Shown here in pieces: positions 2-35,713 of a stretch of DNA of 64,000 nt (its first letter is position 1; the number at the start of each line of letters is the position of its first letter). Below the pieces are notes generated by a model. That model ran no database searches and had not been told where the DNA came from. It saw only the letters and a program-made list of their open reading frames with translations. The DNA comes from an uncultured bacterium (GTDB lineage Bacteria; Zixibacteria; MSB-5A5; GN15; FEB-12). Position numbers and translations under genes: made by a program. Location: assembly GCA_965372795.1 (NCBI GenBank), contig CBDVDR010000002.1:248256-312255 (forward strand), given 5' to 3'.

Positions 2-61
2 ACTTATGAAGTCCCCAGATTCAGCTGGAATAAAGACGATCCGCCAGAGGTGATAAAGTGA
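2..61 (+). CDS. nuoC: NADH-quinone oxidoreductase subunit C, 3' end only (partial)
   Basis: Frame 2 reads TYEVPRFSWNKDDPPEVIK*; its TGA (59-61) overlaps the nuoD ATG; identity is inferred from gene order. Confidence 0.6.
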   Translation, partial: TYEVPRFSWNKDDPPEVIK

Positions 62-1230
62 TGGATAGAAAAGAAGTCACTTTAAACATGGGACCTCAGC
101 ACCCGTCAACTCACGGTGTGCTGCGAGTAGTCCTTACACTTGACGGTGAGAAAGTTGTCAGAGCTGAGCCGGTTGTCGGATATCTGCATACCGGTATTGA
201 GAAAACAATGGAAAGCAAGCTATACTACCATGCTTTACCATGTACTGACCGGATGGATTATTTAGCTCCGATGTCCAATAATTTAGGCTTCTGTCTGGCT
301 GTTGAAAAACTGATGGATATTGAAGTGCCTGAAAAAGTGAAATGGGCACGAGTGATTTTAGCTGAACTGACAAGAATTAAATCACATCTGGTTTGGTTGG
401 GAACTCACGCCCTTGATCTCGGGGCAATGTCAATGCTTCTTTATACTTTCCGTGAACGGGAATCAATCGTTGATGTTTACGAAGCCTGTGGCGGTCAGAG
501 GATGATGACCAGTTATATTAGAATTGGCGGGCTGGCACATGAACTTCCGGTTGATTTTGATAAAAAAGTAAAACAGGTATTGAAACAGATTCCTGAAGGC
601 TTGGCTGATTACGAAAAACTGTTAACAGGTAATGAGATTTTTATTCAACGTACTAAAAATGTTGCAATAATTTCCAAAGAAGACGCTATAAATTATTCGC
701 TTACCGGTCCGATGCTTCGAGGCAGCGGTGTGAATTATGATCTTAGAAAAGCCAACCCTTATAGCGGTTATGAAAATTTTGATTTTGATGTCCCGCTTGG
801 AAAAAACGGCGACGCCTGGGATCGTTATAAAATTCGTCTTGAAGAGATTCGTCAATCTTTACGGATTATTAAACAAGGCTTGGACGGCATGCCGGATGGT
901 CCTTATCGGGCTCATGTTCCGGGTGTGGTTCTTCCGCCTAAAGAAGATATTCTATATAAAATGGAATCAATGATTTTCCATTTTAAAATTATTACTGAAG
1001 GATTCAAACCTCCGGTTGGTTCGGTATATATGCCAATCGAATCGCCCAAAGGGGAGCTTGGATTCCAAATATCGTCAGATGGCACTAATAAACCACATCG
1101 GGTAAGAGTTCGTCCGCCAAGTTTTATCAATTTGGCATCACTGGCCAAATTAGTTGAAGGACGGATGTTCTCGGATGTTGTTTGTGCTATTGGAACCGTT
1201 GATATTGTATTAGGAGAAGTTGACCGATGA
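61..1230 (+). CDS. nuoD: NADH-quinone oxidoreductase subunit D
   Basis: NMGPQHPSTHGVLR, GYLH, ESPKGELG and C-terminal DIVLGEVDR; ATG at 61 preferred over GTG at 58. Confidence 0.97.
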   Translation: MDRKEVTLNMGPQHPSTHGVLRVVLTLDGEKVVRAEPVVGYLHTGIEKTMESKLYYHALPCTDRMDYLAPMSNNLGFCLAVEKLMDIEVPEKVKWARVILAELTRIKSHLVWLGTHALDLGAMSMLLYTFRERESIVDVYEACGGQRMMTSYIRIGGLAHELPVDFDKKVKQVLKQIPEGLADYEKLLTGNEIFIQRTKNVAIISKEDAINYSLTGPMLRGSGVNYDLRKANPYSGYENFDFDVPLGKNGDAWDRYKIRLEEIRQSLRIIKQGLDGMPDGPYRAHVPGVVLPPKEDILYKMESMIFHFKIITEGFKPPVGSVYMPIESPKGELGFQISSDGTNKPHRVRVRPPSFINLASLAKLVEGRMFSDVVCAIGTVDIVLGEVDR

Positions 1231-1703
1231 TTCTGAATGAAGAATCAATAAAACGAATAAAAGAAAAAGCCGCTCGCTATCCGACTAAAAAGTCAGCGAT
1301 ATTACCGGCTATTACGATTGCCTATCGTCAGATTGGGCATCTTGATGATGAGATATATATTGAGTTGAGTAAAGTTATTGATGTTCCGGCGGTTGATATT
1401 GCCGAAGCAGCAACTTTTTATACAATGTTCCCCAAAAAACCAACCGGTAAATATCTTTTGCAGGTTTGCAATAATATTTCATGTGCCTTAGTTGGGTCGG
1501 ATTCATTAGTCGGCTATCTTGAAGATAAACTAAATATTAAAAAAGGTGAGACTACCGAAGACGGACTGTTTACTTTAATAACGGTTGAATGTCTCGGTTC
1601 ATGTGCAACCGCACCGATGGTACAGGTTAATCATGATTTTGAAGAAAATCTTAACCGTGAAAAACTTGATAAAGTAATTGATGATTTGAGGGCTAAAGCC
1701 TGA
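1227..1703 (+). CDS. nuoE: NADH-quinone oxidoreductase subunit E
   Basis: ATFYTMF and CNNISC...CLGSC [2Fe-2S] motif; ATGA overlap with nuoD. Confidence 0.96.
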   Translation: MILNEESIKRIKEKAARYPTKKSAILPAITIAYRQIGHLDDEIYIELSKVIDVPAVDIAEAATFYTMFPKKPTGKYLLQVCNNISCALVGSDSLVGYLEDKLNIKKGETTEDGLFTLITVECLGSCATAPMVQVNHDFEENLNREKLDKVIDDLRAKA

Positions 1704-3037
1704 TGTTTTATTCACCGGTTAAAACAAACGCTGCTGAAGTAGCTAAGAGTGATAGACTGCATCTGTTCAAGTTTGTAGAAGATCCTAAACAGCCGGACAT
1801 AGAAACCTTCATCGAGCACGGCGGCTATAAAGCCTGGGGAAAAGTGCTAAAAGAAATGAATCCCCAGCAGGTTATTGATGAAGTTAAAAATTCCGGACTG
1901 CGAGGGAGAGGCGGAGCCGGATTTCCAACCGGAATGAAATGGAATTTTGTCCCCAAAGACTCTACCAAACCGAGATACTTGTGTTGCAATGCCGATGAAT
2001 CTGAACCGGGAACCTGCAAAGACAGAGTTTTAATGGAACGCGACCCTCATGCGGTTATCGAGGGCATGGCTATCGCATCCTATGCTATCGGCTGTCATCT
2101 AATGTTTATTTATATTCGCGGTGAATTTAATCATTGCCGGGAACAGATGGAAAAAGCAATGGAAGAAGCGTATGCAAAGGGAATTCTTGGTAAAAATATT
2201 TATGGAACCGGATATGATCTTGAAATGATCGTTCATACCGGGGGCGGGGCATATATTTGCGGTGAAGAAACTTCTATGCTGAATTCAATAGAAGGACACC
2301 GGGGAATGTCACGTATTCGTCCGCCATTTCCGGCGGTTGAAGGACTTTATGCCTGTCCGACAATTGTAAATAATGTCGAATCTTTAGTATCATGTTCCCA
2401 TATTATAAACCGTGGAGCAGAGTGGTATAAAACTCTCGGAACCGAAAAATCATCCGGTTCAAAATTGTTTTCACTTTCAGGACACGTTAAACAACCCGGT
2501 AACTTTGAAGTTGAGCTTGGTTTTTCATTAAAGAAATTGATAATGGATCCTGAGTATGGCGGCGGTATTCTGGGTGATAAAAAATTAAAAGGTGTTATCC
2601 CGGGTGGCGCATCAACACCGTTTCTGACTCCTGAAACATATGATGTCAATCTTGACTATGAAGCCCTGACAGAAGTTGATTCGATGCTTGGTTCGGGAGC
2701 AATTATTGTTTTCCACGAGGACACTTGCATTGTCTGGATTATCCAACGCCTGATACATTTTTTCCGCCACGAATCATGCGGGAAATGCACCCCTTGTCGT
2801 GAGGGAACAGGCTGGCTTGAAAGTATGATTAATCGCATTGAAGCCGGACAGGGAAAACCGGGTGATATTGAAAAGATAGATGATATTTGTGGTAATATTC
2901 TTGGTCGTACTGTCTGTCCTTTAGGAGATGCGGCGGTAATGCCGATTCAGTCAACGATCAGATTATTCCGGGATGAATGGCAGTATCATATTGATCATGG
3001 TAAATGTAAAGTTAAAACGGAATTTCCGTTTAGTTAA
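1703..3037 (+). CDS. nuoF: NADH-quinone oxidoreductase subunit F
   Basis: GLRGRGGAGF, NADESEPGTCKDR, YICGEETS and ESCGKCTPCREG. Confidence 0.97.
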   Translation: MFYSPVKTNAAEVAKSDRLHLFKFVEDPKQPDIETFIEHGGYKAWGKVLKEMNPQQVIDEVKNSGLRGRGGAGFPTGMKWNFVPKDSTKPRYLCCNADESEPGTCKDRVLMERDPHAVIEGMAIASYAIGCHLMFIYIRGEFNHCREQMEKAMEEAYAKGILGKNIYGTGYDLEMIVHTGGGAYICGEETSMLNSIEGHRGMSRIRPPFPAVEGLYACPTIVNNVESLVSCSHIINRGAEWYKTLGTEKSSGSKLFSLSGHVKQPGNFEVELGFSLKKLIMDPEYGGGILGDKKLKGVIPGGASTPFLTPETYDVNLDYEALTEVDSMLGSGAIIVFHEDTCIVWIIQRLIHFFRHESCGKCTPCREGTGWLESMINRIEAGQGKPGDIEKIDDICGNILGRTVCPLGDAAVMPIQSTIRLFRDEWQYHIDHGKCKVKTEFPFS

Positions 3038-3043
3038 AAATAT

Positions 3044-5605
3044 ATGACTCAGGAAGCAAAAGAAAAGAAAGAGATTTCGGTGCCTACGGTAACATTGACA
3101 ATTAATGGCAGAGAGATAACAGTCCCCAAAGGTACTACTGTTCTTGAAGCCTCACTTCAAAACGGGATTCATATCCCAACTTTTTGCTGGCATCCAAAGT
3201 TAAAGTCAGTCGGTTCCTGCCGGATGTGTTATGTTGAGATTGAAAAGATGCGTAATCTTATGGTCTCTTGCGCTACCGAAGCAACCAACGGCATGATTGT
3301 CCATACTGAGTCTGAAAAAGTTCTCCAGGGACGCAAAGCTGTAATCGAATTTATCCTTGCCAACCATCCTCTTGATTGTCCGACCTGTGACAAAGGCGGG
3401 GAGTGTGATCTTCAGAACCAAACTTTTGAACATGGCTACGATGATTCCCGTTTTGATTTTAGAAAACACCGTTTTGTAGATGAAAAAACAAATTCAACTT
3501 TTGATGATCTTAAAATCGGTCCTGAACTAGTTCTGAACCGCAATCGCTGTATCCTTTGTTATAAATGCGTCCGCGCCAATAAAGAGGCTTTCAACGAATA
3601 TGATTTGGGTGCGTATGAACGCGGGAATATTACTGAAATCCATGCGGCTCCGGGACAAGCGGTCGATAATCCGTTCTCCGGTAATCTTGCTGAGATTTGT
3701 CCGGTTGGGGCTTTAACAAATTCGGATTGGCGTTATAAAATCAGAGTCTGGTTAACCCAGACCGTTGATGGTATTTGTAATTTCTCAAGTTCTGGCACGA
3801 ACTTAAAGTATTATAAAGAAGGCCATCAGAATAAAATCTTTAGAGTCATGTCAAATCCCAAAGATGCTATTGATGACGGTTGGATTAACGATATTACCCG
3901 GTATGGATACCAAATTGTAAATTCTGCTGATCGCTTGAAAAAGCCTTTGATTAAAAAAGAAGGCAAACAGGTTGAAGTATCCTGGGATGAAGCGATTGAA
4001 GTTATTTATAAACGATTAACAGAAATTAAAGATAAGATGGGTTCGGTCTGTATTGGGGGACTAGCCTCTCCGAATCTTGATAACGCTTCTTTATATTCAT
4101 TTAATAAGTTCTTCCGTAAAGTTCTCAATTCCAATAATGTTGATTTCAGAACTCACTACCGCATGTTGCCGGCAGATGAAAATTCGATCTTCTCAAGTTT
4201 AAGTTCACAAAACTTTTCAATTGCAGATATTGATGATTCTGATGTTATCGTAACCTTTGGATCTGATCTGATTCGTGAACATCAAAATGAGTATTTAAGA
4301 ATTATCAAAGCAAAACAGTTTGGCAATGCTCGGGTTTATTCGATAAATCCTTATGCGATGAAATCGGCTGATGTTGCCAATTTAGAATTGATCTATAAAC
4401 CGGGGTTTGATGAACAGGTAATAAACGGTATCTGTCTTTCAGCAATTGAAGACAATCTGGTTGATTCATCAAAAGCCTCTGAGTTAAAAAATAATATTAC
4501 GCCTAATAATTTAAATGAAATTTCTGAACTCTGCGGAGTGTCGGTGAATGATTTTAAAATAATTGCCAAGGCTCTTTCAGAAGGAATGAAAATTACTTTT
4601 ATAATCGGTGAACTGATCGTTCGTTCTCGGGAGCGGGAAGCTATTTCTACGGCAGTATCTAATTTAAATTATCTGTTTGATTTGAATAATAAAGGACAGG
4701 TTGCGGTTCTGGCTCGCTATGCCAATACTAAAGGTGCTGAAAAATTAGGTTTGTTGCCTCATCCTCATGCTGCTATCAAAAAAGAACTGGAATCTTCATT
4801 TGATTGTTATCCTCAATGTGAGGCTCATAACACTGACAGCATGCTGGCTTTGATGAAAAAGGAAGAGATTAGCGGTCTTGTTATTATGGGTTCAAATCCA
4901 ATGATGTTATATCCTGACCGTGAATTTGTCAAAGAAGGATTAGGGAAACTTGATTTCCTTGTCGTGTGTGATCTGTTTGATTCTGAAACAACCGAGCTTG
5001 CTGATGTGGTTCTTCCGCTTTCAAGTTGGGCAGAGTATGAAGGCGACTATGTGAATCTTGAAGGAAAAGTACAGACTTCAGGCAAAGCTATCAAACCGAT
5101 TGGTGATGCAAAACCCGGTTATGATATTATAAAAATGATGGCTGATAAATATGAAACATCAATTTTTGATTCTGATGATGATATGCAGACAGAAATAGAT
5201 CAATTGTTGAAAATTGACAGCTTCATGAAATTACCTCAGGGGATAAGTGAAGTCAAAGTTGCTGAAGAAAAAATTGACGAAGGTTTTGATATTCCACTTT
5301 TTGTGAATGATGATCCACATCATAGCGGCCACTGGACTGAAAAATCACCTTCTTTAATGAATTTTGCGGGCGAGGCGTATCTGGAACTTGCTCCTGAAAT
5401 GGCAGAAAAATATAATCTGAACGAGGGCGACCCCGTCAGAGTTGAATCACCGGTAAGTAAAATTATTGTACCGGTCAAAATTTCAGAACATCTTGAAAAT
5501 GATGTTGTCCTGTTACCAAGGAATTTCTCATCAACTCATGTAACTTCATTGATGATGAGAAAAAAACGAGTCGACCGAGTAAAGCTTAGCCGGGTGGATG
5601 ATTAA
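3044..5605 (+). CDS. nuoG: NADH-quinone oxidoreductase subunit G
   Basis: N1b (FCWH..GSCRMC..SC), N5 (HPLDCPTCDKGGEC) and N4 (CILCYKC..C) motifs, plus a molybdopterin-oxidoreductase-like C-terminus. Confidence 0.95.
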   Translation: MTQEAKEKKEISVPTVTLTINGREITVPKGTTVLEASLQNGIHIPTFCWHPKLKSVGSCRMCYVEIEKMRNLMVSCATEATNGMIVHTESEKVLQGRKAVIEFILANHPLDCPTCDKGGECDLQNQTFEHGYDDSRFDFRKHRFVDEKTNSTFDDLKIGPELVLNRNRCILCYKCVRANKEAFNEYDLGAYERGNITEIHAAPGQAVDNPFSGNLAEICPVGALTNSDWRYKIRVWLTQTVDGICNFSSSGTNLKYYKEGHQNKIFRVMSNPKDAIDDGWINDITRYGYQIVNSADRLKKPLIKKEGKQVEVSWDEAIEVIYKRLTEIKDKMGSVCIGGLASPNLDNASLYSFNKFFRKVLNSNNVDFRTHYRMLPADENSIFSSLSSQNFSIADIDDSDVIVTFGSDLIREHQNEYLRIIKAKQFGNARVYSINPYAMKSADVANLELIYKPGFDEQVINGICLSAIEDNLVDSSKASELKNNITPNNLNEISELCGVSVNDFKIIAKALSEGMKITFIIGELIVRSREREAISTAVSNLNYLFDLNNKGQVAVLARYANTKGAEKLGLLPHPHAAIKKELESSFDCYPQCEAHNTDSMLALMKKEEISGLVIMGSNPMMLYPDREFVKEGLGKLDFLVVCDLFDSETTELADVVLPLSSWAEYEGDYVNLEGKVQTSGKAIKPIGDAKPGYDIIKMMADKYETSIFDSDDDMQTEIDQLLKIDSFMKLPQGISEVKVAEEKIDEGFDIPLFVNDDPHHSGHWTEKSPSLMNFAGEAYLELAPEMAEKYNLNEGDPVRVESPVSKIIVPVKISEHLENDVVLLPRNFSSTHVTSLMMRKKRVDRVKLSRVDD

Positions 5606-5608
5606 GTT

Positions 5609-6610
5609 ATGTTAGAGATGATGGTCATAGCCTTTATAAAGGTAGCCTTAGTCGTTGTTGCAGTTCTCACTGGTTGTGCTTATTCGACCTGGCTCGAAAG
5701 AAAAGTTCTGGCGCGTCTTCAGCATCGGATGGGACCAACTTATGCCGGACCTTATGGGTTGATGCAGCCGATAGCGGATGGTTTAAAGTTAATCTTTAAA
5801 GAAGATATCGTTCCGAACAATGCCGAGAGAGTAACTTTTGCTCTGGCGCCGATGATATCATTTATTCCAGCTTTGCTGACTTTTGCAGTTGTTCCGTTTG
5901 GCGCTGATACTGTTATCTTTGGCCATGAAGTCAAAATGGTGCTGTCTGATTTGAATATTGGTGTTCTCTTTGTCTTTGCAGTAACATCACTCGGTATTTA
6001 CGGTATCGTTCTGGCCGGCTGGTCATCCGGTTCAAAATATTCCTTAATGGGCGGATTGCGATCATCAGCACAAATGATTTCTTATGAAGTCAGCTACGGA
6101 TTATCAATTATTGGAATTATCTTAATAGCAAATACATTGTCGTTACGTGAACTTGTCGACATGCAGGCCTCGGATTCGATCTGGTTTTTCAGTAACTGGT
6201 TTATCTGGAAACAACCCTTAGGATTTTTACTTTACCTGGTCTGTGCTGTTGCCGAAACCAACCGCGCCCCATTTGATCTGCCCGAGGCAGAGTCGGAACT
6301 GGTCGCCGGTTATCACACCGAATATTCATCAATGCGATTCAGTATGTTCTTTATCAGTGAATATGCAAATATGATTGCTGTCGCAGCGGTTGGCGTAACT
6401 CTGTTCTTCGGTGGTTGGCATGGTCCGTATCTGCCGTCGATACTCTGGTTTGTAATTAAGGTTTTCTGTTGTATGTTCTTCTTTATATGGTTAAGAGCAA
6501 CGTTCCCTCGTTTGCGCTATGACCAGCTAATGAATTTTGGATGGAAAGTTTTGTTCCCGCTTGCCCTGCTGAACACCATGGTGACAGCTGCCTGGGTAAT
6601 GTGGGAATAG
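5609..6610 (+). CDS. nuoH: NADH-quinone oxidoreductase subunit H
   Basis: GLMQPIADGLKL and ETNRAPFDLPEAESELVAGYHTEYS. Confidence 0.97.
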   Translation: MLEMMVIAFIKVALVVVAVLTGCAYSTWLERKVLARLQHRMGPTYAGPYGLMQPIADGLKLIFKEDIVPNNAERVTFALAPMISFIPALLTFAVVPFGADTVIFGHEVKMVLSDLNIGVLFVFAVTSLGIYGIVLAGWSSGSKYSLMGGLRSSAQMISYEVSYGLSIIGIILIANTLSLRELVDMQASDSIWFFSNWFIWKQPLGFLLYLVCAVAETNRAPFDLPEAESELVAGYHTEYSSMRFSMFFISEYANMIAVAAVGVTLFFGGWHGPYLPSILWFVIKVFCCMFFFIWLRATFPRLRYDQLMNFGWKVLFPLALLNTMVTAAWVMWE

Positions 6611-6632
6611 GATAAAGTGAGGCAGTAAGAGA

Positions 6633-7136
6633 ATGAAAGAAGTAATTAAAGCAATTGGCAATGTTTTTATAAATATGCCGATTGGTATGGCAACAACTTT
6701 TAAGCATATGTTTAAAAAGCCAATTACTCTTGATTACCCAAAGAAGAAAAAACCGATGTCTCCCCGGTATCGCGGTCGTCATTATCTCGAGCGTTATGAT
6801 GATGGTTCCGAGCGGTGTGTCTGTTGTGGTTTATGTGCCTCTGCCTGTCCGGCTGATGCGATTTATATGGAGCCGGAGGAGAATGAAAAAGGGGAGAGAA
6901 AAGCTAAGATTTATGAAATAAATCTTCTGCGTTGTATCTACTGTGGATTATGTGAAGAAGCCTGTCCTGAAGAAGCAATCTTTCTGGGTCAGGATTATGA
7001 ATTTGCTGATTCCACACGCGATGCTTTTATTTGGAAAAAAGAACAAATGCTGGTTAAGCATCCAAGAAAAGAAAATCCTCTTAAAAAAATATATCGTCGT
7101 ATAAGAAAAGTTTATGGAGTCCCGGATAGAAACTAA
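6633..7136 (+). CDS. nuoI: NADH-quinone oxidoreductase subunit I
   Basis: RYRGRH and two CxxCxxCxxxCP motifs. Confidence 0.96.
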   Translation: MKEVIKAIGNVFINMPIGMATTFKHMFKKPITLDYPKKKKPMSPRYRGRHYLERYDDGSERCVCCGLCASACPADAIYMEPEENEKGERKAKIYEINLLRCIYCGLCEEACPEEAIFLGQDYEFADSTRDAFIWKKEQMLVKHPRKENPLKKIYRRIRKVYGVPDRN

Positions 7137-7717
7137 TGAATTTAGATATTATTATATTTGTGATCTCTGCTGTTGTAGCTGTCTTTGGAGCTACAATGAT
7201 GATCTTTCAGCGTAACCCGATAGCATCGGTTTTATACCTGATTGTATCCTTAGTTGCCCAAGCGGTTTTATATGTACAGCTCGGCGCCCTGTTTATGGGG
7301 GCGATGCTGATTATTGTATATGCCGGTGCAATTATGGTTTTATTCTTGTTTGTAATAATGATGCTGAATCTCAGGGGTGGGGAAGACCTCGGAGAATCAT
7401 CACCGCCAATTAGTAGATTTACTAAATATGTTGTTTCATTACTAATCTTTTTTGAGATGGTATTTATTATTCGAAATGGTTTTTTATCAAATGCTTTTGC
7501 ACCCGGAATGATGCAGGAAGCGACAACCGATTTTGGAACAGTGGAACCAATCGCAACATTATTATTTACACGATATCTATATCCGTTTGAATTAACCTCA
7601 ATTCTGTTACTGGCTGCTATTGTCGGCGCCGTTGTGCTGGCCAAGCGCGAATCTGCCGAGGAGCTTCAAACGAGTATTGATGAACAGACCGAAGTTAATA
7701 AAGAGGAACAAAAATAA
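7136..7717 (+). CDS. nuoJ: NADH-quinone oxidoreductase subunit J
   Basis: VYAGAIMVLFLFVIM and YLYPFELTSILLL. Confidence 0.95.
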   Translation: MNLDIIIFVISAVVAVFGATMMIFQRNPIASVLYLIVSLVAQAVLYVQLGALFMGAMLIIVYAGAIMVLFLFVIMMLNLRGGEDLGESSPPISRFTKYVVSLLIFFEMVFIIRNGFLSNAFAPGMMQEATTDFGTVEPIATLLFTRYLYPFELTSILLLAAIVGAVVLAKRESAEELQTSIDEQTEVNKEEQK

Positions 7718-7719
7718 TT

Positions 7720-8022
7720 ATGGTTCCTATCTCTGCATATTTAATTGTGGCAGTTGCCTTGTTTGGAATTGGTGCTCTGGGTGTATTGATTTCAAGAAAC
7801 ATCATTATCATGATGATGTCGGTCGAGTTGATGCTCAATGCTGCTAATCTGGTTTTAATCGCATTTTCAAAAGTTATGAATATTATGGATGGTCATGCCA
7901 TCGTGTTTTTGGTTTTAACAGTTGCCGCTGCTGAGGCTGCGGTTGGTTTGGCGATGGTTATTCTGTTGTTCAGAAATCGGGATACTATAAATATTGACCG
8001 CTTCAATATATTGAAATGGTAA
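7720..8022 (+). CDS. nuoK: NADH-quinone oxidoreductase subunit K
   Basis: SVELMLNAANL and VAAAEAAVGLA. Confidence 0.96.
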   Translation: MVPISAYLIVAVALFGIGALGVLISRNIIIMMMSVELMLNAANLVLIAFSKVMNIMDGHAIVFLVLTVAAAEAAVGLAMVILLFRNRDTINIDRFNILKW

Positions 8023-8035
8023 GGTGAAAATAAAT

Positions 8036-9973
8036 ATGGCTGATTACTTGTATTTAATACCTCTTTTTCCGCTGATCGGATTTATGATCAACGGACTGTT
8101 ACTTGGGAAAATCCCACGTACTTTAAGCGGTATAATTGCATCAGGATCTGTCGGGCTATCATTTATTGTTGCCTTGATGTTGTTTTTTGATTTAAAAGCT
8201 CTTCCAACTGATTCAAGAGTTATTGAACAGGTTTTATTTACCTGGATAAATTCCGGTACGTTCCATGTCAGTTTCGGATTCCTTTTGGATCCGCTTTCTT
8301 CAATCATGATATTAGTTGTCACCGGTGTTGGATTTTTAATTCATGTTTATTCAATCGGCTATATGGCTCATGAGCCGGGGTATGGTCGATATTTTACATA
8401 TTTGAATTTGTTTACCTTTTCCATGCTGATTCTGGTGCTGGCTGATAATTTCCTGCTCCTTTTTGTAGGGTGGGAAGGGGTTGGACTTTGTTCTTATCTC
8501 TTAATCGGCTTTTGGTTCGAGAAAAAATCAGCCTCAGATGCCGGTAAAAAAGCTTTCATTGTTAACCGTATTGGTGATTTCGGGTTTTTGCTGGGAATGT
8601 TTTTGATTTTCTGGAATGTGGGCACACTCAATTTCAGAGAAGTTGTCGAACTTTCACCAACAATATTTACAGTCGGCAGCGGTTTGATTACAGGAATTTG
8701 TCTGCTTCTATTTTTAGGTGCGACCGGTAAATCGGCACAAATACCTTTGTTTGTCTGGCTGCCGGATGCTATGGAAGGACCGACACCCGTATCAGCATTA
8801 ATTCATGCGGCAACGATGGTAACAGCCGGTGTTTATATGATTGTCAGAACCAATGTCCTGTTTATAATGGCTCCCGATGCTATGATGACGGTTGCAATCA
8901 TTGGTGCTACCACAGCCATATTTGCGGCAACAATCGGGTTAGCGCAAAATGATATTAAACGAGTTTTGGCTTACTCAACTGTTAGCCAATTAGGATATAT
9001 GTTCCTTGCCTGTGGTGTCGCCGCATTCTCTGCCGGTATTTTTCATCTGATGACTCATGCCTTCTTTAAAGCGTTATTATTCCTCGGATCCGGCTCGGTT
9101 ATTCATGCTATGTCGGATGAGCAGGATATGCGTAAAATGGGCGGATTAAAAAAATATATTCCGGTTACATATTGGACCTTTATAATTGCCACGCTGGCAA
9201 TATCAGGAATTCCCGGTCTGTCAGGATTTTTCTCAAAGGATGAAATTCTCTGGAAATCATTCTCATCTCAATACGGTCACCCGATCTTCTGGGTGCTCGG
9301 ATTTATTACTGCCGGATTAACTGCTTTCTATATGTTCCGACTGGTCTATATGACTTTCCACGGGAAAGAACGAATGGATGATACAACTCGTAAAAATATC
9401 CATGAATCTCCCAAAACAATGACAGTCCCATTGATTGTCCTGGCAGTCTTATCAGTTATTGGTGGCTGGGTAGGCATCCCGCATATCTTTGGAGTGACAA
9501 ATTATTTTGAACACTGGTTGGAACCGGTAGTAGCTTCCAGTTCTCAAATCGCTGCGACACAAGCTTTGTTAGCCTCGTCAGCAGATACCACAACGGAATG
9601 GGGACTAATGGCGGCATCGGTGGCTTTGGTTTTAGCAGCAATATTTATGGCAAGGCTTTTCTACAGCAAAAAACCGGAACTGGCTACAGCTTTCCAATCC
9701 AAACTTACAGGTGTACATAAAGTATTGTTGAATAAATATTATGTTGATGAGCTCTATGGGGCAGTAATAATACGACCAATTGTTTATTTCTCGCTGTTTT
9801 TATGGAAAGTATTCGATGTTGTAATCATTGATGGTTTCTTAAATGGAATGGCTACGCTTTATAACGATGTCTCAGAAACTTTTAGACAGGGACAAACCGG
9901 AAGATTGAGAAGTTATGCTACTCTGTTTGCTTTTGGAGTTGTTATTCTGGTCGCAATCTTTTTGATGGATTAA
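8036..9973 (+). CDS. nuoL: NADH-quinone oxidoreductase subunit L
   Basis: GKSAQIPLFVWLPDAMEGPTPVSALIHAATMV and HAFFKALLF; ATG at 8036 follows AAGGTG (alternative GTG at 8024). Confidence 0.97.
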   Translation: MADYLYLIPLFPLIGFMINGLLLGKIPRTLSGIIASGSVGLSFIVALMLFFDLKALPTDSRVIEQVLFTWINSGTFHVSFGFLLDPLSSIMILVVTGVGFLIHVYSIGYMAHEPGYGRYFTYLNLFTFSMLILVLADNFLLLFVGWEGVGLCSYLLIGFWFEKKSASDAGKKAFIVNRIGDFGFLLGMFLIFWNVGTLNFREVVELSPTIFTVGSGLITGICLLLFLGATGKSAQIPLFVWLPDAMEGPTPVSALIHAATMVTAGVYMIVRTNVLFIMAPDAMMTVAIIGATTAIFAATIGLAQNDIKRVLAYSTVSQLGYMFLACGVAAFSAGIFHLMTHAFFKALLFLGSGSVIHAMSDEQDMRKMGGLKKYIPVTYWTFIIATLAISGIPGLSGFFSKDEILWKSFSSQYGHPIFWVLGFITAGLTAFYMFRLVYMTFHGKERMDDTTRKNIHESPKTMTVPLIVLAVLSVIGGWVGIPHIFGVTNYFEHWLEPVVASSSQIAATQALLASSADTTTEWGLMAASVALVLAAIFMARLFYSKKPELATAFQSKLTGVHKVLLNKYYVDELYGAVIIRPIVYFSLFLWKVFDVVIIDGFLNGMATLYNDVSETFRQGQTGRLRSYATLFAFGVVILVAIFLMD

Positions 9974-9976
9974 GTA

Positions 9977-11557
9977 ATGGAATCACAGATACTGACATTA
10001 GTGACATTTTTCCCGCTCCTTGGGTGCCTTCTTTTATTACTGGTACCTAACGAACGGCATGATACAATTAAATCGGTTAGTCTCATAATTGCATTTATTA
10101 CAATGCTATTTTCATTCATGTTATATGTCATGTTTGAACCGCTTGCTAATGGGATGCAGTTTGAAGTAAATATTCCCTGGATAACAACATTCGGAATTAA
10201 TTATCATATGGGGATTGATGGAATCTCCTTACTGTTGATAGTCCTGACTTCAATTCTAACGGTGTTGTGTATCCTTGCTTCCTGGAATTCAATCACATCC
10301 GGTGTTAAGGGTTACTATATTTCAATGCTTCTTTTAACAACCGGGATGATCGGTGTTTTTTGTACTTTGGATCTGTTCCTGTTCTATATCTTCTGGGAAG
10401 TGATGCTGATCCCGATGTATTTCATTATTGGAATCTGGGGTGGTGTCAGAAGAATTTATGCTGCAATAAAATTTGTTTTGTTCACCATGTTTGGATCGCT
10501 ACTGATGCTTGTGGCGATTATATATGTTCTATTTGAATACCAAAAATATGCCGGTGCCTATACATTTGACATGCTAAAAATTATTGAGATGCCTATCGGC
10601 TCTCAGGCTCAAATGTGGTTGTTCGGAGCTTTTGCCTTAGCCTTCGCAATCAAAGTTCCACTATTCCCATTCCATACCTGGCTTCCGGATGCTCACGTTC
10701 AGGCTCCAACTGCAGGTTCGGTAATTCTTGCCGGGGTTCTGCTTAAGATGGGTACTTATGGATTTATCCGAATCTGTATGCCAATGTTCCCGGAAGCGAC
10801 AATGGTCTATCTGCCATATATCAGTGTCCTTTCTGTAATAGCAATAATTTACGGGGCTTTGGTCGCCATGGTTCAGAAGGATGTTAAATCGTTAGTTGCC
10901 TTCTCATCGGTTTCACATATGGGCTTTGTGATGCTTGGTCTGTTTGCCTTAAACTTACAGGGACTTCAAGGTTCAGTTTTGCAGATGATTAACCACGGTG
11001 TTTCAACGGGTGCCTTATTCTTATTGGTTGGCATGATCTATGAGCGTAGGCATACGCGGATGATTGATGAGTTTGGCGGACTTGCTAAAGTTATGCCGGT
11101 ATTCTCAACGATTTTCCTGATTGTCACCTTGTCATCCATCGGACTGCCGTTAACCAACGGTTTTGTCGGTGAGTTTTTGATTTTACTGGGTGTCTTTAAA
11201 TCAAATATGGTTTATGCTATTATAGCAACGAGCGGTGTTATTTTATCAGCTTGTTATATGCTTTGGATGTATCAGCGGGTTATTTTTGGAAAGATTACCA
11301 ATAAAGCCAATGAAGTATTAAAAGATCTCAATTGGCGTGAAAAAATTATTATGATTCCGTTGTTAATCTTAATTTTTTGGATCGGCGTTTATCCAAAACC
11401 GCTTTTGGATCGGATTGAACCGGCAGTTAAAAATGTGTTACAACAAATGGGATCAGCACGTACTGTAGATGTAAAAGATACCTTAGAATATAAAGATAGA
11501 TATTCCACCCGGGCAGAAGTTATACAATTGACTTATAGTGAAAGAGGTGTGAATTAA
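9977..11557 (+). CDS. nuoM: NADH-quinone oxidoreductase subunit M
   Basis: IKVPLFPFHTWLPDAHVQAP and LLKMGTYG. Confidence 0.97.
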   Translation: MESQILTLVTFFPLLGCLLLLLVPNERHDTIKSVSLIIAFITMLFSFMLYVMFEPLANGMQFEVNIPWITTFGINYHMGIDGISLLLIVLTSILTVLCILASWNSITSGVKGYYISMLLLTTGMIGVFCTLDLFLFYIFWEVMLIPMYFIIGIWGGVRRIYAAIKFVLFTMFGSLLMLVAIIYVLFEYQKYAGAYTFDMLKIIEMPIGSQAQMWLFGAFALAFAIKVPLFPFHTWLPDAHVQAPTAGSVILAGVLLKMGTYGFIRICMPMFPEATMVYLPYISVLSVIAIIYGALVAMVQKDVKSLVAFSSVSHMGFVMLGLFALNLQGLQGSVLQMINHGVSTGALFLLVGMIYERRHTRMIDEFGGLAKVMPVFSTIFLIVTLSSIGLPLTNGFVGEFLILLGVFKSNMVYAIIATSGVILSACYMLWMYQRVIFGKITNKANEVLKDLNWREKIIMIPLLILIFWIGVYPKPLLDRIEPAVKNVLQQMGSARTVDVKDTLEYKDRYSTRAEVIQLTYSERGVN

Positions 11558-11778
11558 TGTCCACTGTAACTATTTATACAAAAGAAGGCTGCCCATATTG
11601 TGCGGCAGCGAAGAAGCACTACAATGATAGTGGTATCGATTTTAAAGAAATTGATGTCCATAAAACAGATGGTGCTCAGGAAGATTTATTAAAGTTGACC
11701 GGAGGAGAGAGAATCGTCCCGGTTATTGTGGAAAAGGACGAAGTCAAATTAGGCTTCGGTGGTGGTTGAGGCTTTTAA
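11557..11778 (+). CDS. Glutaredoxin-like protein, probable selenoprotein (UXX-star type, ends GFGGG-U-GF*)
   Basis: CPYC active site and VPVI cis-Pro motif; in-frame TGA at 11767-11769 followed by GGC TTT TAA and a SECIS-like hairpin; TAATG coupling to nuoM. Without recoding the ORF ends at 11769. Confidence 0.8.
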
Positions 11779-11783
11779 CCTAA

Positions 11784-11800
11784 GTGCAACGGGTTTGCAT
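11784..11800 (+). promoter_or_regulatory. Candidate bacterial SECIS element
   Basis: Stem GTGCAA/TTGCAT with loop CGGGT; the loop starts 21 nt after the UGA and has G at loop position 2. Confidence 0.65.
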
Positions 11801-11814
11801 ATGATGGATTTTTT

Positions 11815-13263
11815 ATGATAGATTTTACTTCAGCATCAATTGATTTTTCTTTGATAGGACCAGAGATTTCCCTGTTGGTAGCGGCTTTTATTATTTTGCT
11901 GATCGGTGTCAATGACCGCCTGGCAAAGTATTCCTCTACTATCGGACTTATCGGCTTAGCGGTTGCTATTTATCTTGGAATAAATCAATGGGGGCATCAA
12001 CAATCAGGATTCTTTGGAATGGTTACCTGCGATAATTTTGGGGTTGCTTTCAAAGTCATTCTGGCTTCCACCTCAATGCTGGTTGTGTTACTGGCTACTG
12101 ACTACCTTAAAATCAAAGGGATCAATCGTCCCGAGTTTTATGCTCTGTTGAATATTTCCACAATGGGAATGATGGTCATGGCTAACTCGACCGACCTGAT
12201 CGTTATGTTCCTCGGCTTGGAAATAATGTCTGTTCCGCTTTATGTTATGGCGGCATTCTCAAGAAGATCACTCGAATCAAACGAAGCAGGCATAAAATAT
12301 TTGATCATGGGAGCGTTTGCTTCTGCCTTTTTATTGCTGGGAATAGCCTTTCTTTTTGGGGCATCGGGAACGACCGATTTACGAAGAATTGTAACCGATT
12401 ACCACTATATTTTAGCAAATTATAAACTCTATTTTTATGCCGGAGTCTCTTTGGTTTTGGTCGGCTTTGGTTTTAAAATCGGTGTGGTTCCGTTCCATAG
12501 CTGGATTCCTGATGTATATCAAGGCGCCCCGACTCCGATAACAGCATTCTTTTCTGTGGTTCCCAAAGCTGCGGCGTTTGCAGTTATGTTAAGAATTTTC
12601 AGTTTCGGATTTGCCTTCCTGGATATTTTAACCCCGGTCTTCTGGGGTTTAGCAGTTATCACAATGGTTGTAGGTAACGTTCTTGCCTTAAGGCAGAGCA
12701 ATATAAAAAGGATGCTGGCTTATTCATCAATTGCTCATGCCGGTTATGTCCTGGTAGCGTTCACCGTAGGTGGCACTGAATCTGTTTCGGCAGCGATGTT
12801 CTATGTGGTTGGCTATTCGATGTTCAACCTTGGAGCCTTTGCAATTGTTACCCTAATGGAGACAAGGATCGGCTGTAAAGCTGATTTTAGTGAACTGGTT
12901 GGATTCGGCAAAAGTAATCCTTATCTTGCTGTTATCCTTGCTTTGTTTATGTTTGCTCTGTCAGGTTTTCCGCCGACAGTCGGATTCATTGGTAAATTCT
13001 ATATATTTTCTGCTGCTATTAAACAAGGATTCATCCTCTTATCAGTTATCGGTGTCATGAATTCTTTTATATCTGTTTATTATTATCTCAGGGTAATCAA
13101 GGTCAGCTTCTTTGAAGATGGTGAATCGTCACTTAAGCCGGTGACTGTCTCTGCGTCGATGATGGTGGTTTTGGTTGTTACTATTGTTGGAACTTTGGGG
13201 CTCGGCTTATTCCCACAGCGTTTAATTGAAATATCAAAAACTGCATTATTTGCTTTTATATAA
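11815..13263 (+). CDS. nuoN: NADH-quinone oxidoreductase subunit N
   Basis: GFKIGVVPFHSWIPDVYQGAP, KRMLAYSSIAHAGY and GFIGKF. Confidence 0.97.
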   Translation: MIDFTSASIDFSLIGPEISLLVAAFIILLIGVNDRLAKYSSTIGLIGLAVAIYLGINQWGHQQSGFFGMVTCDNFGVAFKVILASTSMLVVLLATDYLKIKGINRPEFYALLNISTMGMMVMANSTDLIVMFLGLEIMSVPLYVMAAFSRRSLESNEAGIKYLIMGAFASAFLLLGIAFLFGASGTTDLRRIVTDYHYILANYKLYFYAGVSLVLVGFGFKIGVVPFHSWIPDVYQGAPTPITAFFSVVPKAAAFAVMLRIFSFGFAFLDILTPVFWGLAVITMVVGNVLALRQSNIKRMLAYSSIAHAGYVLVAFTVGGTESVSAAMFYVVGYSMFNLGAFAIVTLMETRIGCKADFSELVGFGKSNPYLAVILALFMFALSGFPPTVGFIGKFYIFSAAIKQGFILLSVIGVMNSFISVYYYLRVIKVSFFEDGESSLKPVTVSASMMVVLVVTIVGTLGLGLFPQRLIEISKTALFAFI

Positions 13264-13268
13264 AAATT

Positions 13269-16001
13269 CTAATTAACATACCAGAAAGAACAGGGCTCAT
13301 CACCATTGTTAAACATATACTCGACAAAAAAGGTGATATCGGAAATGTCAATAAATTCAGAACAGTTGACATCGCCGGATTGATAAGGATCAGGTACCGG
13401 ACCGTTATCAAAAAGATAAGTTACCAATGATGTCAGATCAGATATTCCAATCTCTTCATCATCATTGAGATCACCCGATTGTACCCACATACCAAGCGTA
13501 CTGGTGAACTTAATAGAACTTTCATCACTGACGATATGTTCAGGTATGTCACCATTGTCAAAATAACTATATGCTTCGCAATCTATAGCTGATAGTCCAA
13601 TAAGTACCGATTGTTCAAGACTGCTGCTACCTATGTTTTGATATTGAAAAAGAATCCCTTTGTCTTTTGTTAATATTATTTCAAAATTCAGGGTCGAATC
13701 ACCGTACTGATTGAAATTAGTAGGGCGATACCATTCAATAACCATTGTATCCGATTTTTTCCAAATATAAAGTCCCGCATCGGCTACTAAATTTGTATCA
13801 AAAACAAGATCGCTCCAATACGCTGAAATAAATGAATTAAACGGCGCACCGGGAAGATCAAAGTTCCCGTAGTAGCCATTTGAATTGACATTTGCGTCTG
13901 TAAACGATATTCCGCCGTTGACACCGATGTAAACCTGTGTAAAAATTTGTCCATAGAATTCAAAATCAAAAGATGTTGTAATCGGACCGGCCGAGCCATC
14001 ATCCAGGGGATTTCCGCCGGATGAATTATAAAAGGTACTAAAGGGGATTTTAAATCCGTTATCTTTAGCAGACATCCAATTATAAGTTGGACCATCCGGT
14101 TCTGTTGATAATACTCCTCGATAAGTAGTATCGTAGCAGGGGACTTGTAAAAAAGTTAAAACTGAAAATTCAGAATCCAGATTTCCAACCTGCCCCCAGG
14201 CAATATCTATCGAGCCTTTGTAAGACTCAATACGGTCACCTAAAACAGAAGCGTCAAGGGTAACTTCGATTAGAAACGAATCAGCTTGATTGACAATTCC
14301 TGAGGTTGGGAACACTGTCAACCAATCAGGGGATACCGCTTTGTCAATTGAATCAAGGGCAGTGATAGCAAAATCATAAGGTAAAGAATTGGACCGGTTT
14401 TTTATCCAAAGATCAAATACGGCAGAATTGCCTTCATCTAACACGGTATCGATTACTAATATATCAGTATAAATTGAAGGAGGAGGAACAGCAGCCGGAA
14501 TAGCAGCCAGTAAATTTGGTCGCGGTCCAATATGCTTGGAGACATCTCCAAGCTGAGCTGTTCCGGTTGCCACAAGATAATCTCTGATTAAATCAGAAGT
14601 AAGCGGGACACCATAAGCCGCCTTGTAGTAGCCCTGTAAACAAGCGGCAGTACCGGTAATAATCGGCGAGGCAGAAGAAGTTCCGCCAAAACTGTTGGTA
14701 TAATATTGATTTTCATCACCACCACCGTCAAAAAGAGCACCATAGCCAGTGGTGTAAACTCCCGAGCCATAACCCTGAAGATTTACCCGTTCACCATAAT
14801 TTGAAAAACCATGTTTTTGTAAATTTGACGATGAAGCTGCCGGGTATCCGGCACCTACGATAATTGCATGTGAGTTGCGATAGGTGGTATCGAACAGATC
14901 ACCATAGAGGGCGGGGTCATCATAATTTTCACCGCCATTGCCACCTGCTTCAATTACAACAATACCGTGTGCCCAGGCATAAAGAATCGCATCATAATTT
15001 GCCTGCCAGTATTCCATGCAGACATATCCAAGCTGATCACTTCTGGTTTGGAAATTATAATGAGGTCCCGGGGCATGAAGCTCGATTAAAATTAAATCAC
15101 CCTGAACCAAATTTTCTGTAGCTGTAATAAGGGCTTCAGAAGTAGCCATAGTCCCGATAGAAATCATCCCTATATCTGAGCCGGGACAAATTCCAGTGAC
15201 GCCATAGCCATTATCTCCGGCAATCATTACTCCAATAACTGCAGTCCCATGATTGCGCCAACTGGGATCGTTAATCATCGTTCCTGCAATCAATCCGTTG
15301 GCTGCTTTGTCAAGGTCTTCATGAGTCGTCTGCCAACCACCTTCAATATCTATAATTTTAACGCCTGTGCCGTCGCCTCCCGGTAAAGTATTGGCATAAT
15401 CAGCATCAACTCCAGCCGGAGCGGCTTCACGATAATCCTGATTTGGTTGATAATCCGGGGTCGTGGGTGAAATATCATCAGCCAGCTCTGGCATCGGTTC
15501 AAAATAAGCAATTTCAACGTACTCAAGAGCGTTCAAATCATTAATCAAATTTTCCGCTTCCAAAGCATTTGAAATTTCAATTTTATAATAGCTATTTAAA
15601 TCAGCCAGTTGCTGGCGGCTTCGTGCTTCAAGAACTTCTTTCTTACGATCCAGTTTTTCTTCGGAGAAACCGGTAAAGAGTCTTCTGAAACTTGAATTAT
15701 AATGGAATCTCAATTTCTCATCAGCCTGATTTACATTAAAACCTGCTTTTGAGATTAATTTATCAGCTCGTTTTCGAACCTTGTAATCATCTTTGAATTT
15801 AACAATAACTCCGGAAATATTTGTCCCGGAAGGTACGATAGTTTTGTTTGGTTTAATTGCAGCTTGTCGCGGTTTGAGAACTTTTCCATTTTTGATCAGA
15901 TCTGTTTTTTTAGCAGAATCAACAGTGAGGGGTAAGATAAAAAGAACAGTAAAAATGCCAATAAGAGTAAAAATTTTCCAATTTTTAAGACGAGGCGTCA
16001 T
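13269..16001 (-). CDS. Secreted S8 (subtilisin-like) serine peptidase with C-terminal dockerin-like domain
   Basis: Signal peptide; IIDIE, NHGTAV and GGTSSASP catalytic motifs; C-terminal GDLNDDEEIGISDLTSLVTYLF...GDVNC; GGAGG RBS supports ATG at 16001 rather than 16058. Confidence 0.88.
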   Translation of the reverse strand: MTPRLKNWKIFTLIGIFTVLFILPLTVDSAKKTDLIKNGKVLKPRQAAIKPNKTIVPSGTNISGVIVKFKDDYKVRKRADKLISKAGFNVNQADEKLRFHYNSSFRRLFTGFSEEKLDRKKEVLEARSRQQLADLNSYYKIEISNALEAENLINDLNALEYVEIAYFEPMPELADDISPTTPDYQPNQDYREAAPAGVDADYANTLPGGDGTGVKIIDIEGGWQTTHEDLDKAANGLIAGTMINDPSWRNHGTAVIGVMIAGDNGYGVTGICPGSDIGMISIGTMATSEALITATENLVQGDLILIELHAPGPHYNFQTRSDQLGYVCMEYWQANYDAILYAWAHGIVVIEAGGNGGENYDDPALYGDLFDTTYRNSHAIIVGAGYPAASSSNLQKHGFSNYGERVNLQGYGSGVYTTGYGALFDGGGDENQYYTNSFGGTSSASPIITGTAACLQGYYKAAYGVPLTSDLIRDYLVATGTAQLGDVSKHIGPRPNLLAAIPAAVPPPSIYTDILVIDTVLDEGNSAVFDLWIKNRSNSLPYDFAITALDSIDKAVSPDWLTVFPTSGIVNQADSFLIEVTLDASVLGDRIESYKGSIDIAWGQVGNLDSEFSVLTFLQVPCYDTTYRGVLSTEPDGPTYNWMSAKDNGFKIPFSTFYNSSGGNPLDDGSAGPITTSFDFEFYGQIFTQVYIGVNGGISFTDANVNSNGYYGNFDLPGAPFNSFISAYWSDLVFDTNLVADAGLYIWKKSDTMVIEWYRPTNFNQYGDSTLNFEIILTKDKGILFQYQNIGSSSLEQSVLIGLSAIDCEAYSYFDNGDIPEHIVSDESSIKFTSTLGMWVQSGDLNDDEEIGISDLTSLVTYLFDNGPVPDPYQSGDVNCSEFIDISDITFFVEYMFNNGDEPCSFWYVN

Positions 16002-16148
16002 TATTCCTCCATGCTTGTTTACGTCTAATTTTCTAACAGCAGTAAATGATTGGATCAAATAGTTCGTACGATCCCAATATAGCTACAATCTCATGTTTGT
16101 CAATTAGTTACTATTATGACTATCGGCAAGATGAGTAGAGGAATGTAC

Positions 16149-34493: not shown

Positions 34494-34931
34494 TTAAATT
34501 GCAATCTTGTTGGTCTTGCCATCGATTGGTTTATACTGTAAGGCTTTTGTCGGACAGAAATGAGCACAAACCGGATCACCCCCACAAAGGTCACATTTGA
34601 CCACTTGTTCATTTTGATCATCAATAATTGAGCAGCCAAACGGACAAGCCGCCACGCAAGCCATGCAATTAACACACATTTCTCTGTTTAATTCGATTGC
34701 GCCTGTAACTGGATTCCGCTTAAGGGCATTTACCAAACATGATTTCACACAGGCAGCATCATCGCATTGCAAGCAGGTTACTGGCACCCATAATTCTTTG
34801 TGACCGGTTTCAAGCGGATAGATACGGCTTTTGCCGGGTTTGCCGTTTTCTGAGTGAGTAAAGGCACAGGCTAATTCACAAGTTCGGCAACCGGTGCAAA
34901 CATCAGGATTTATTATAAAACTGGCTTTCAT
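34494..34931 (-). CDS. 4x[4Fe-4S] electron-transfer protein (CooF/HydN/DmsB-like)
   Basis: CTGCRTCELAC, CLQCDDAACVKSC, CVNCMACVAAC and CDLCGGDPVCAHFC; ATGA overlap with the upstream gene. Confidence 0.9.
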   Translation of the reverse strand: MKASFIINPDVCTGCRTCELACAFTHSENGKPGKSRIYPLETGHKELWVPVTCLQCDDAACVKSCLVNALKRNPVTGAIELNREMCVNCMACVAACPFGCSIIDDQNEQVVKCDLCGGDPVCAHFCPTKALQYKPIDGKTNKIAI

Positions 34932-35704: not shown

Positions 35705-35713
35705 TCAAAACTC

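Follow-up and report, generated by a model that had tools for sequence, protein, structure and literature searches.

Within a 64,000-nucleotide stretch of a Zixibacteria genome (hereafter the window), the operon encoding the 14-subunit respiratory complex I contains an additional small gene between nuoM and nuoN, which we name grxU. Comparison of this gene with its relatives indicates that it very probably encodes a real selenoprotein of the Uxx-star family, that is, a glutaredoxin-like protein in which an in-frame UGA codon near the end of the gene is read as selenocysteine (Sec) and is followed by two further codons and the true stop. The explanation that we favour as a whole, and that we regard as rather probable, is that this selenoprotein uses its selenol together with a CPYC active site in a redox relay that serves complex I. 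The window corresponds to positions 248256-312255 of contig 2 of a Zixibacteria metagenome-assembled genome (MAG), which comprises 3.35 Mb in 69 contigs and is 98.65% complete.

The gene was first pointed out in a first-pass annotation made from the letters of the window, which described a CPYC-containing open reading frame (ORF) coupled to nuoM by TAATG, an apparent TGA stop followed by GGC TTT TAA, and a hairpin shortly afterwards. All of these statements about the sequence hold. The TAA of nuoM (11555-11557) and the ATG of grxU (11557-11559) have one base in common, and the hairpin is the minimum-free-energy structure at its place, with 20 nucleotides (nt) between the UGA and the loop. Taken as a conventional ORF under genetic code table 11, grxU extends over 11557-11769 and ends at the TGA after 70 amino acids. 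The annotation further proposed that the product is a Uxx-star selenoprotein, and named as checks the Sec genes of the genome, the residue that homologues have in place of the UGA, a selenocysteine insertion sequence (SECIS) downstream of it, and the order nuoM-grx-nuoN in relatives. The suggested role as a redox, assembly or Fe-S accessory of complex I is putative. The proposal of a selenoprotein was borne out on each of these points: the Sec genes are present, homologues read UGA-x-x-stop or, in some distant relatives, Cys-x-x-end, a hairpin with covariation follows the UGA in relatives, and the gene order is conserved. The coordinates of all parts are collected in Table 1.

The machinery for decoding UGA as Sec is present in the host genome, with selA (513.6 bits), selB (323.6 bits), selD (389.3 bits) and tRNA-Sec (68.9 bits) all above cut-off, and 257 of the phylum's 285 genomes have a selB match that exceeds the cut-off. 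The selD gene (contig 4, 204174-205094) has one in-frame TGA of its own inside the 389-bit match, so selenophosphate synthetase is itself likely a selenoprotein. A search with the read-through protein gave a match in 39 of 41 genomes (the host and its nearest relatives), and every best match contained exactly one TGA. A search of the phylum with the family model detected the gene in 223 of 285 genomes at E ≤ 0.001 and in 191 of 285 above the cut-off, with a single copy in the host genome. Fourteen of the 150 listed matches lacked a stop; these are alignments that end ahead of the TGA, and all 14 read GG[GS]-TGA-two codons-stop.

We counted codons in 96 non-redundant Zixibacteria loci (duplicates removed) and in 32 loci of other phyla. 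The first stop is TGA in all of them (96/96 and 32/32, or 128/128 together). In every one of the Zixibacteria loci, exactly two codons separate this TGA from a second stop, which can be TAA (56 loci), TAG (18) or TGA (22). The first of the two codons specifies Gly in 92 of 96 loci and does so with all four Gly codons (GGA 52, GGC 16, GGT 14, GGG 10), and the second specifies Phe (74), Ile (13) or Tyr (9). TGA followed by two codons and a stop is also found in 18 of the 32 loci of other phyla; in the remaining 14, the TGA is followed by 3-5 codons. A CPYC active site occurs in 93 of the 96 Zixibacteria loci, with CPHC or CPFC in the other three, and in 32/32 loci of other phyla. Because the TGA is constant while the second stop drifts, and because the two intervening codons appear to be under constraint at the protein level, we interpret the TGA as a Sec codon rather than a terminator. 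We also considered an alternative genetic code and rejected it, since the eleven nuo genes of the window are open under table 11 and TGA is the true second stop in 22 of the 96 relatives.

More distant homologues have Cys in place of Sec. A search of 1.84 billion cluster representatives yielded 840 matches at E ≤ 0.001, of which 21 were retrieved. Eight of these 21 have a Cys two residues from their end, which is aligned to the U71 column in five cases and is one column off in three; among the 21 there is also one with a longer tail and one that ends at the Cys. In seven of the eight Cys-x-x-end homologues (the Cys forms include P0015, P0032, P0033, P0118, P0090, P0060 and P0084), the N-terminal site is CxxS or CxxT and not CxxC. 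Since the Cys forms mostly have CxxS/T, this pattern suggests that the C-terminal Cys or Sec is the redox partner of the first active-site Cys. Two longer homologues, P0014 (139 amino acids) and P0016 (202 amino acids), have an extra N-terminal domain fused to the Uxx-star-like domain; their called ends lie at ...GGG, and they are probably also truncated at a Sec codon.

Bacterial SECIS elements are placed 16-37 nt from the UGA in bSECISearch, and that of Escherichia coli fdhF likewise shows a G and a U to SelB in a GGUC-type loop. The hairpin of the window has 6 base pairs (bp), including one G-U pair, and there are 20 nt from the A of the UGA to its loop. As the fold of this single sequence is not significant, we relied on comparison with relatives, from which the significance of the hairpin derives. 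A hairpin is predicted just past the second stop in all 30 related loci of our first set, with a UGA-to-loop distance of 18-22 nt; its loop is GGUC in 14 of the 30, and in most others G and then U occupy loop positions 2-3. In a plain MAFFT alignment of these loci, RNAalifold finds a 6-bp helix in which all six pairs (6/6) have changes on both sides. A covariance-model realignment, which is fitted to the structure and leans towards it as the MAFFT result does not, has 93.8% of 178 cells paired, 46 of them with double changes. The covariation score is 0.709 versus 0.285 in shuffles (0/500 reach it), and when partners were slid by 1-3 columns only 21-58% were paired. Members from other phyla have the same kind of hairpin after their UGA although no nuoN follows there, so the hairpin belongs with the UGA and not with nuoN. 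In the window it fills most of the 36-nt spacer ahead of nuoN, and this short hairpin would direct the decoding of Sec. Neither a permissive Rfam search of 11300-12100 nor a gathering-threshold scan of the whole window returned a relevant family.

Judged by its profile matches, grxU is a full-length member of a known, curated Uxx-star family. The 73-amino-acid read-through product scores 118.6 bits against NF041212 ('Uxx-star family glutaredoxin-like (seleno)protein'; cut-off 66) and covers positions 1-70 of the 70 in the profile; the product without read-through scores 110.5 bits, and it is the addition of U-G-F that lifts this score. Against NF041114 (UXX-star family 1; cut-off 72), grxU scores 77.1 bits with read-through and 71.3 bits without, but that family is tabulated with a UxxT motif and two Sec, whereas grxU has CPYC and one Sec. 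Scores fall below the cut-offs for NF041211 (family 2; 85.5 versus 100 bits), NF047338 (family 3; 77.7 versus 97 bits) and NF045501 (HUGP/GUXX-star fusion; 80.4 versus 325 bits), and the Pfam Glutaredoxin family PF00462 matches with 53 bits. The first-pass annotation had called the selenoprotein hidden, but the family as such is not unknown, as an NCBIfam model names it.

The accessible text of a review (PMC13188914) credits NF041212 to Haft & Tolstoy 2025 (mSystems) and tabulates UXX-star family 1, or 'distant Grx-like protein 1', with the UxxT motif and two Sec; that family was first seen in ocean metagenomes (reference 61 of the review, Zhang & Gladyshev 2008). With the other members of NF041212, grxU shares the glutaredoxin fold, the N-terminal CxxC, the Sec followed by two residues and a stop, and the hairpin directly after. 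It differs from them in belonging to a clade that is fixed between nuoM and nuoN in Zixibacteria, a context found in 0/33 members from other phyla. With family 1 it has in common that it is a small glutaredoxin-like protein ending in U-x-x-stop, and its N-terminal CPYC and single Sec set it apart. The Sec-containing clostridial glutaredoxin (UxxC; in the accessible text of PMC13188914) also combines this fold with Sec; there, however, Sec takes the place of the first active-site Cys, whereas grxU keeps both active-site cysteines and has its Sec at the C-terminus.

An AlphaFold2 model of the protein, built with an alignment of 27 relatives, has a predicted local distance difference test score (pLDDT) of 89.8. 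The model follows the strand-helix-strand-helix-strand-strand order of glutaredoxin, with its last strand at residues 62-65 and no helix after it. Foldseek aligns it with glutaredoxins and NrdH at template-modelling (TM) scores of 0.75-0.81 (7c10 and 4tr0, structures related to the Sec-containing clostridial glutaredoxin, are among the matches), and by sequence the nearest solved structures are Grx3-type proteins. The protein is small, soluble and cytoplasmic and has no membrane segment. It does not fit a classical glutathione-dependent glutaredoxin (for example, Grx3, TIGR02181): the score is 50.1 versus a cut-off of 90 bits, the C-terminal helix past the GG loop is missing, and gshA and gshB were not found. 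Searches of the 98.65%-complete genome returned neither gshB (TIGR01380) nor gshA (PF04262); other routes to glutathione or low-molecular-weight thiols were outside these searches.

grxU forms an integral part of the operon for the 14-subunit, NuoEFG-containing complex I. Genes nuoM and nuoN flank it in 30/30 loci of the first set, in 45 of 48 loci of a larger set (the other 3 are cut by contig ends), and in 45 of 47 Zixibacteria loci from a scan with one genome per species (the other 2 are cut by locus ends). The nuoM stop lies -13 to +15 nt from the inferred grxU start in 90 of 95 related loci, and 86 of 92 loci have a gap of 29-51 nt between the end of grxU and nuoN, which leaves room only for the hairpin and a ribosome-binding site. 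Given that grxU begins on the last base of the nuoM stop and that nothing but the hairpin and a ribosome-binding stretch comes between it and nuoN, it is predicted to be made together with the membrane-arm subunits. The host genome has a second nuo operon (contig 5, approximately 99076-107750) of the 11-subunit type, in which NuoD, L, M and N were found and no NuoF nearby; here nuoN directly follows nuoM after a gap of about 90 nt, and there is no glutaredoxin gene. The same nuoM-grxU-nuoN locus recurs in several public MAG records with Ignavibacteriales, Calditrichota or 'FCB group' in their titles (for example, our loci L103, L109, L111, L116-L118 and L122). The submitters' labels of these records seem to be off: L103 is the same stretch as L027, which comes from a genome placed in the family of the window. 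The conserved position of grxU in the nuo operon across much of Zixibacteria seems to be new. The searchable literature, judged mostly by titles and the beginnings of abstracts, yielded no description of a gene for a selenoprotein or glutaredoxin within nuo; Haft & Tolstoy 2025 may bear on this point.

Among the genomes examined, nuo-linked grxU is confined to part of the Zixibacteria and is thus a speciality of one large clade, in agreement with the remark in the first-pass annotation that the arrangement is not a standard nuo feature. Three Zixibacteria families have no match to the Uxx-star protein (f16, 0/10 genomes; f17, 0/14; f19, 0/3), though all have selB; in families f14 and f20 the matches are weak and of a generic glutaredoxin kind. 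Families f9 and f13 do have the gene. Five genomes of gene-lacking families have nuoM and nuoN side by side in both nuo operons, with the exception of one operon. In that operon (L186 1-1700, from a Zixibacteria genome without a Uxx-star gene), the nuoM-nuoN junction is about 1.2 kb long and holds two unassigned ORFs of 197 and 189 amino acids, a different insertion at the same place. A search for remnants of grxU in the nuoM-nuoN spacers of nine operons without the gene gave no match with an E-value below 0.04, and no match fell within a spacer.

Outside the phylum, we collected 33 Uxx-star loci from Thermoleophilia, Chloroflexota, Eremiobacterota, Acidobacteriota, Syntrophomonas and Thermincola. 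Neighbours in 15 of these loci include heavy-metal P-type ATPases (2), rhodaneses (2), 2Fe-2S proteins (2), DUF498/Mth938-like proteins (2), a thioredoxin (1) and selB (1). The P-type ATPases have HMA domains and are found in L137, directly upstream, and L167; the rhodaneses are in L137 and L162, and the 2Fe-2S proteins in L162 and L166. In two Anaerolineae loci (L158 3106-3465 and L177 88-552), the Uxx-star gene comes right after the DUF498/Mth938-like gene, and in L158 selB stands just before that gene. The relatives of this neighbour in the PDB are Mth938, PH1505 and C11orf67 (2cyj, 1ihn). DUF498 may also include the complex I assembly factor NDUFAF3, although literature searches gave no confirmation of this.

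The structure of the protein suggests how its selenol could act. In classical glutaredoxins, the glutathione site, which is near the active-site cysteine, is lined by a GG loop that follows the last strand. In grxU, Sec71 would lie on a Gly-rich C-terminal tail that starts where a classical glutaredoxin enters its last helix, beside the CPYC site. Because the chain ends at the GG-loop point with G-G-G-U-G-F, we infer that the selenol should reach Cys12. In the mechanism that we propose, Sec71 would attack an oxidised target, which might be a peroxide, a disulfide, or a cysteine in S-thiolated or sulfenylated form. Cys12 would resolve the selenenylsulfide so formed, Cys15 would then close a disulfide, and the CPYC disulfide would be re-reduced by a thioredoxin-type system or reductase. 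The net result would be a glutathione-independent relay with three centres, in which a built-in selenol takes the place of glutathione.

Such a relay would most likely act on cysteines of complex I itself, whether for repair, for redox regulation or during assembly. From the gene's position in the operon, we judge a role directed at complex I to be close to probable, without quite reaching it. In a more specific form, which we consider unlikely, grxU would be the dedicated selenium partner of the 14-subunit complex I, either as a supernumerary subunit or as a bound repair or assembly factor. Translational coupling would have it made in stoichiometric amounts with NuoM and NuoN, and the selenol and CPYC site would keep or reset critical cysteines of the enzyme. 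One candidate client, Cys267 of NuoM, was rejected: this residue is invariant in 48/48 grxU-linked NuoM proteins, but it also occurs in 2/9 unlinked ones and lies within a conserved membrane stretch. A complex prediction with the NuoM of the window and the 70-amino-acid product gave a score of 0.00, which we take as evidence neither way.

Several points weigh against the explanation as a whole. The evidence is drawn entirely from comparison of MAGs, and these MAGs are kin, so counts such as 96/96 overstate the number of independent cases. The hairpin of the window is weak when taken alone, with -9.6 kcal/mol for a 56-nt stretch (z = -0.08; 96/200 shuffles fold as well or better) and z = -0.41 for a 91-nt stretch around it, and of the two alignments that bear on it, one had been fitted to the structure. 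Gene order is what links grxU to complex I. In the five genomes of gene-lacking families mentioned above, nuoN comes immediately after nuoM, even where NuoM is 57-69% identical to that of the window; complex I of this type presumably works without grxU. Nor does any of the 33 loci of other phyla have nuoM or nuoN within 3.5 kb (0/33), and as the members there adjoin unrelated genes, the Uxx-star family cannot, taken as a whole, be regarded as a complex I factor. Finally, the Sec of the family may be a metal ligand, according to the accessible text of PMC13188914.

A less likely but still realistic alternative is that grxU is a genuine Uxx-star selenoprotein with a general cytoplasmic redox function, and that it is located in the nuo operon just for co-regulation with respiration, perhaps to counter oxidants that arise while the respiratory chain is running. 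The many unrelated contexts of the family in other phyla would fit this alternative, as would the Zixibacteria genomes that lack the gene and keep nuoM-nuoN adjacent and presumably functional, and the small, soluble nature of a protein without membrane segments. On the other hand, the gene has the same position in all 96 non-redundant loci (where the contig allows this to be seen), between two membrane subunits rather than at the operon end, and it mostly overlaps the nuoM stop. Moreover, the one copy that was found in the host genome belongs to the 14-subunit operon, and the second nuo operon lacks the gene. These features argue against a purely general function.

It is quite unlikely that the Sec and the CPYC cysteines instead bind a metal or cluster, which would make grxU a carrier or chaperone (in Fe-S, Cu, or selenium and sulfur trafficking) supplying or protecting complex I cofactors. 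According to work on glutaredoxin 2 and plant glutaredoxins, the proline of CPYC disfavours Fe-S binding, and the active site is CPYC in nearly all Zixibacteria loci and in every locus of the other phyla, as counted above. The adjoining genes encode membrane-arm subunits, which have no metal centres, and the Cys-form homologues keep one N-terminal Cys together with the C-terminal Cys, which is the pattern of a redox pair. What speaks for metal binding is that complex I has many Fe-S clusters and that neighbours in other phyla include the heavy-metal P-type ATPases with HMA domains, rhodanese and 2Fe-2S proteins. The role of the family Sec as a possible metal ligand, suggested in the accessible text of PMC13188914, points the same way.

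Lastly, it is highly improbable that the TGA is an ordinary stop, the product a 70-amino-acid glutaredoxin and the hairpin an intergenic mRNA structure for processing, stability or translational coupling to nuoN, for although the 70-amino-acid table 11 ORF is complete and still passes NF041212, and although the hairpin of the window is not significant alone and has no Rfam match, this would leave unaccounted for the TGA as first stop in 128/128 loci with any of the three codons as second stop, the two further codons in 96/96 Zixibacteria loci with synonymous variation preserving Gly-Phe/Ile/Tyr, the Cys at this position in distant homologues, the rise in profile score upon extension, the complete Sec machinery, and a hairpin whose G-U loop keeps its distance from the UGA, also in phyla without nuoN downstream.

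The proposed relay has partial precedents. Mammalian thioredoxin reductase has a C-terminal Gly-Cys-Sec-Gly tail, and grxU, as proposed, resembles it in that a C-terminal selenol on a flexible Gly-rich tail exchanges with a dithiol centre and meets the substrate. The two proteins are, however, unrelated in fold and size; grxU has neither a flavin nor an adjacent Cys in its tail, and its relay is so far a proposal. NDUFA2 (B8) is a thioredoxin-fold supernumerary subunit of mitochondrial complex I, located on the peripheral arm and devoid of Sec. At the level of fold, it is a precedent for a small thioredoxin-type accessory of complex I; the association of grxU with the complex is putative. The nearest precedent is mitochondrial glutaredoxin 2, which, in the accessible text of two papers, acts on complex I thiols, with glutathionylated cysteines in the 75-kDa subunit (PMC2529008, PMC5773472), so that a glutaredoxin-fold protein there has surface cysteines of complex I among its clients. 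Unlike grxU, that protein depends on glutathione, lacks Sec and has its gene elsewhere; in the genome with grxU, gshA and gshB were not found.

In the window, the operon runs in one direction as nuoD-E-F-G-H-I-J-K-L-M-grxU-nuoN with short or overlapping junctions, and nuoN starts 36 nt past the TAA of grxU. NuoD, E, F, G and L score above their own curated NCBIfam cut-offs, and NuoH, I, J and K each score above at least one equivalog cut-off. Genes nuoA-C are presumably located ahead of the window start. The far end of the operon is marked by a gene for a Peptidase_S8 (subtilase-family) protein of 929 amino acids (13269-16058, minus strand), which converges on the end of nuoN.

Table 1. Positions in the window of the complex I operon, grxU and the parts of grxU
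Feature	Position	Strand	Basis or remarks
Upstream operon genes	58..9973	+	nuoD 58-1230, nuoE 1227-1703, nuoF 1703-3037, nuoG 3044-5605, nuoH 5609-6610, nuoI 6633-7136, nuoJ 7136-7717, nuoK 7720-8022, nuoL 8024-9973
nuoM, 526 amino acids	9977..11557	+	TIGR01972, 641 bits versus cut-off 263.8
grxU (name given here), predicted selenoprotein gene, 73 codons and TAA	11557..11778	+	Uxx-star glutaredoxin-like, MSTV...LGFGGG-U-GF
CPYC redox motif, Cys12 and Cys15 of grxU	11590..11601	+	Sequence
In-frame UGA, read as selenocysteine 71 (predicted)	11767..11769	+	TGA invariant among loci, Cys aligned in distant homologues, Sec machinery present
Gly72 and Phe73 codons (GGC TTT), then true stop TAA	11770..11778	+	Read-through, ...LGFGGG-U-G-F-stop
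SECIS-like hairpin	11784..11800	+	Stem GTGCAA 11784-11789 / TTGCAT 11795-11800, loop CGGGU 11790-11794; minimum-free-energy fold, covariation
nuoN, 482 amino acids, final gene of operon	11815..13263	+	TIGR01770, 436 bits versus cut-off 332.6

Elsewhere in the window (34928-37567, minus strand), a NuoF-like protein of 617 amino acids with Complex1_51K, NADH_4Fe-4S and 2Fe-2S thioredoxin-like domains is encoded, followed by a 2Fe-2S/4Fe-4S protein of 258 amino acids. This pair is a soluble NADH-linked module separate from the nuo operon. The ORF of the 258-amino-acid protein ends in TGA, after which KPVL and two stops follow, and it has no sign of Sec.

These results have consequences for annotation and for the biology of the Zixibacteria. 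Standard gene callers end grxU at Gly70 and so lose the residue predicted to be catalytic, and this also concerns at least 191 of the phylum's 285 genomes that were searched. Even if the gene were in the operon only for co-regulation, the result would be a clean, well-supported selenoprotein annotation with a compact SECIS. We know of no Uxx-star protein with a tested function, and the nuo-locked clade would offer the family its first concrete, testable client. To our knowledge, bacterial complex I is usually taken to consist of 14 core subunits, with few accessory proteins known; a selenoprotein encoded between nuoM and nuoN would add to it an element for redox maintenance or assembly, and the respiration of these sediment and groundwater bacteria would depend at least partly on selenium. 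If grxU is indeed a dedicated partner of complex I, it would be the first selenoprotein component of respiratory complex I, and selenium supply would be tied to respiration in a whole phylum.

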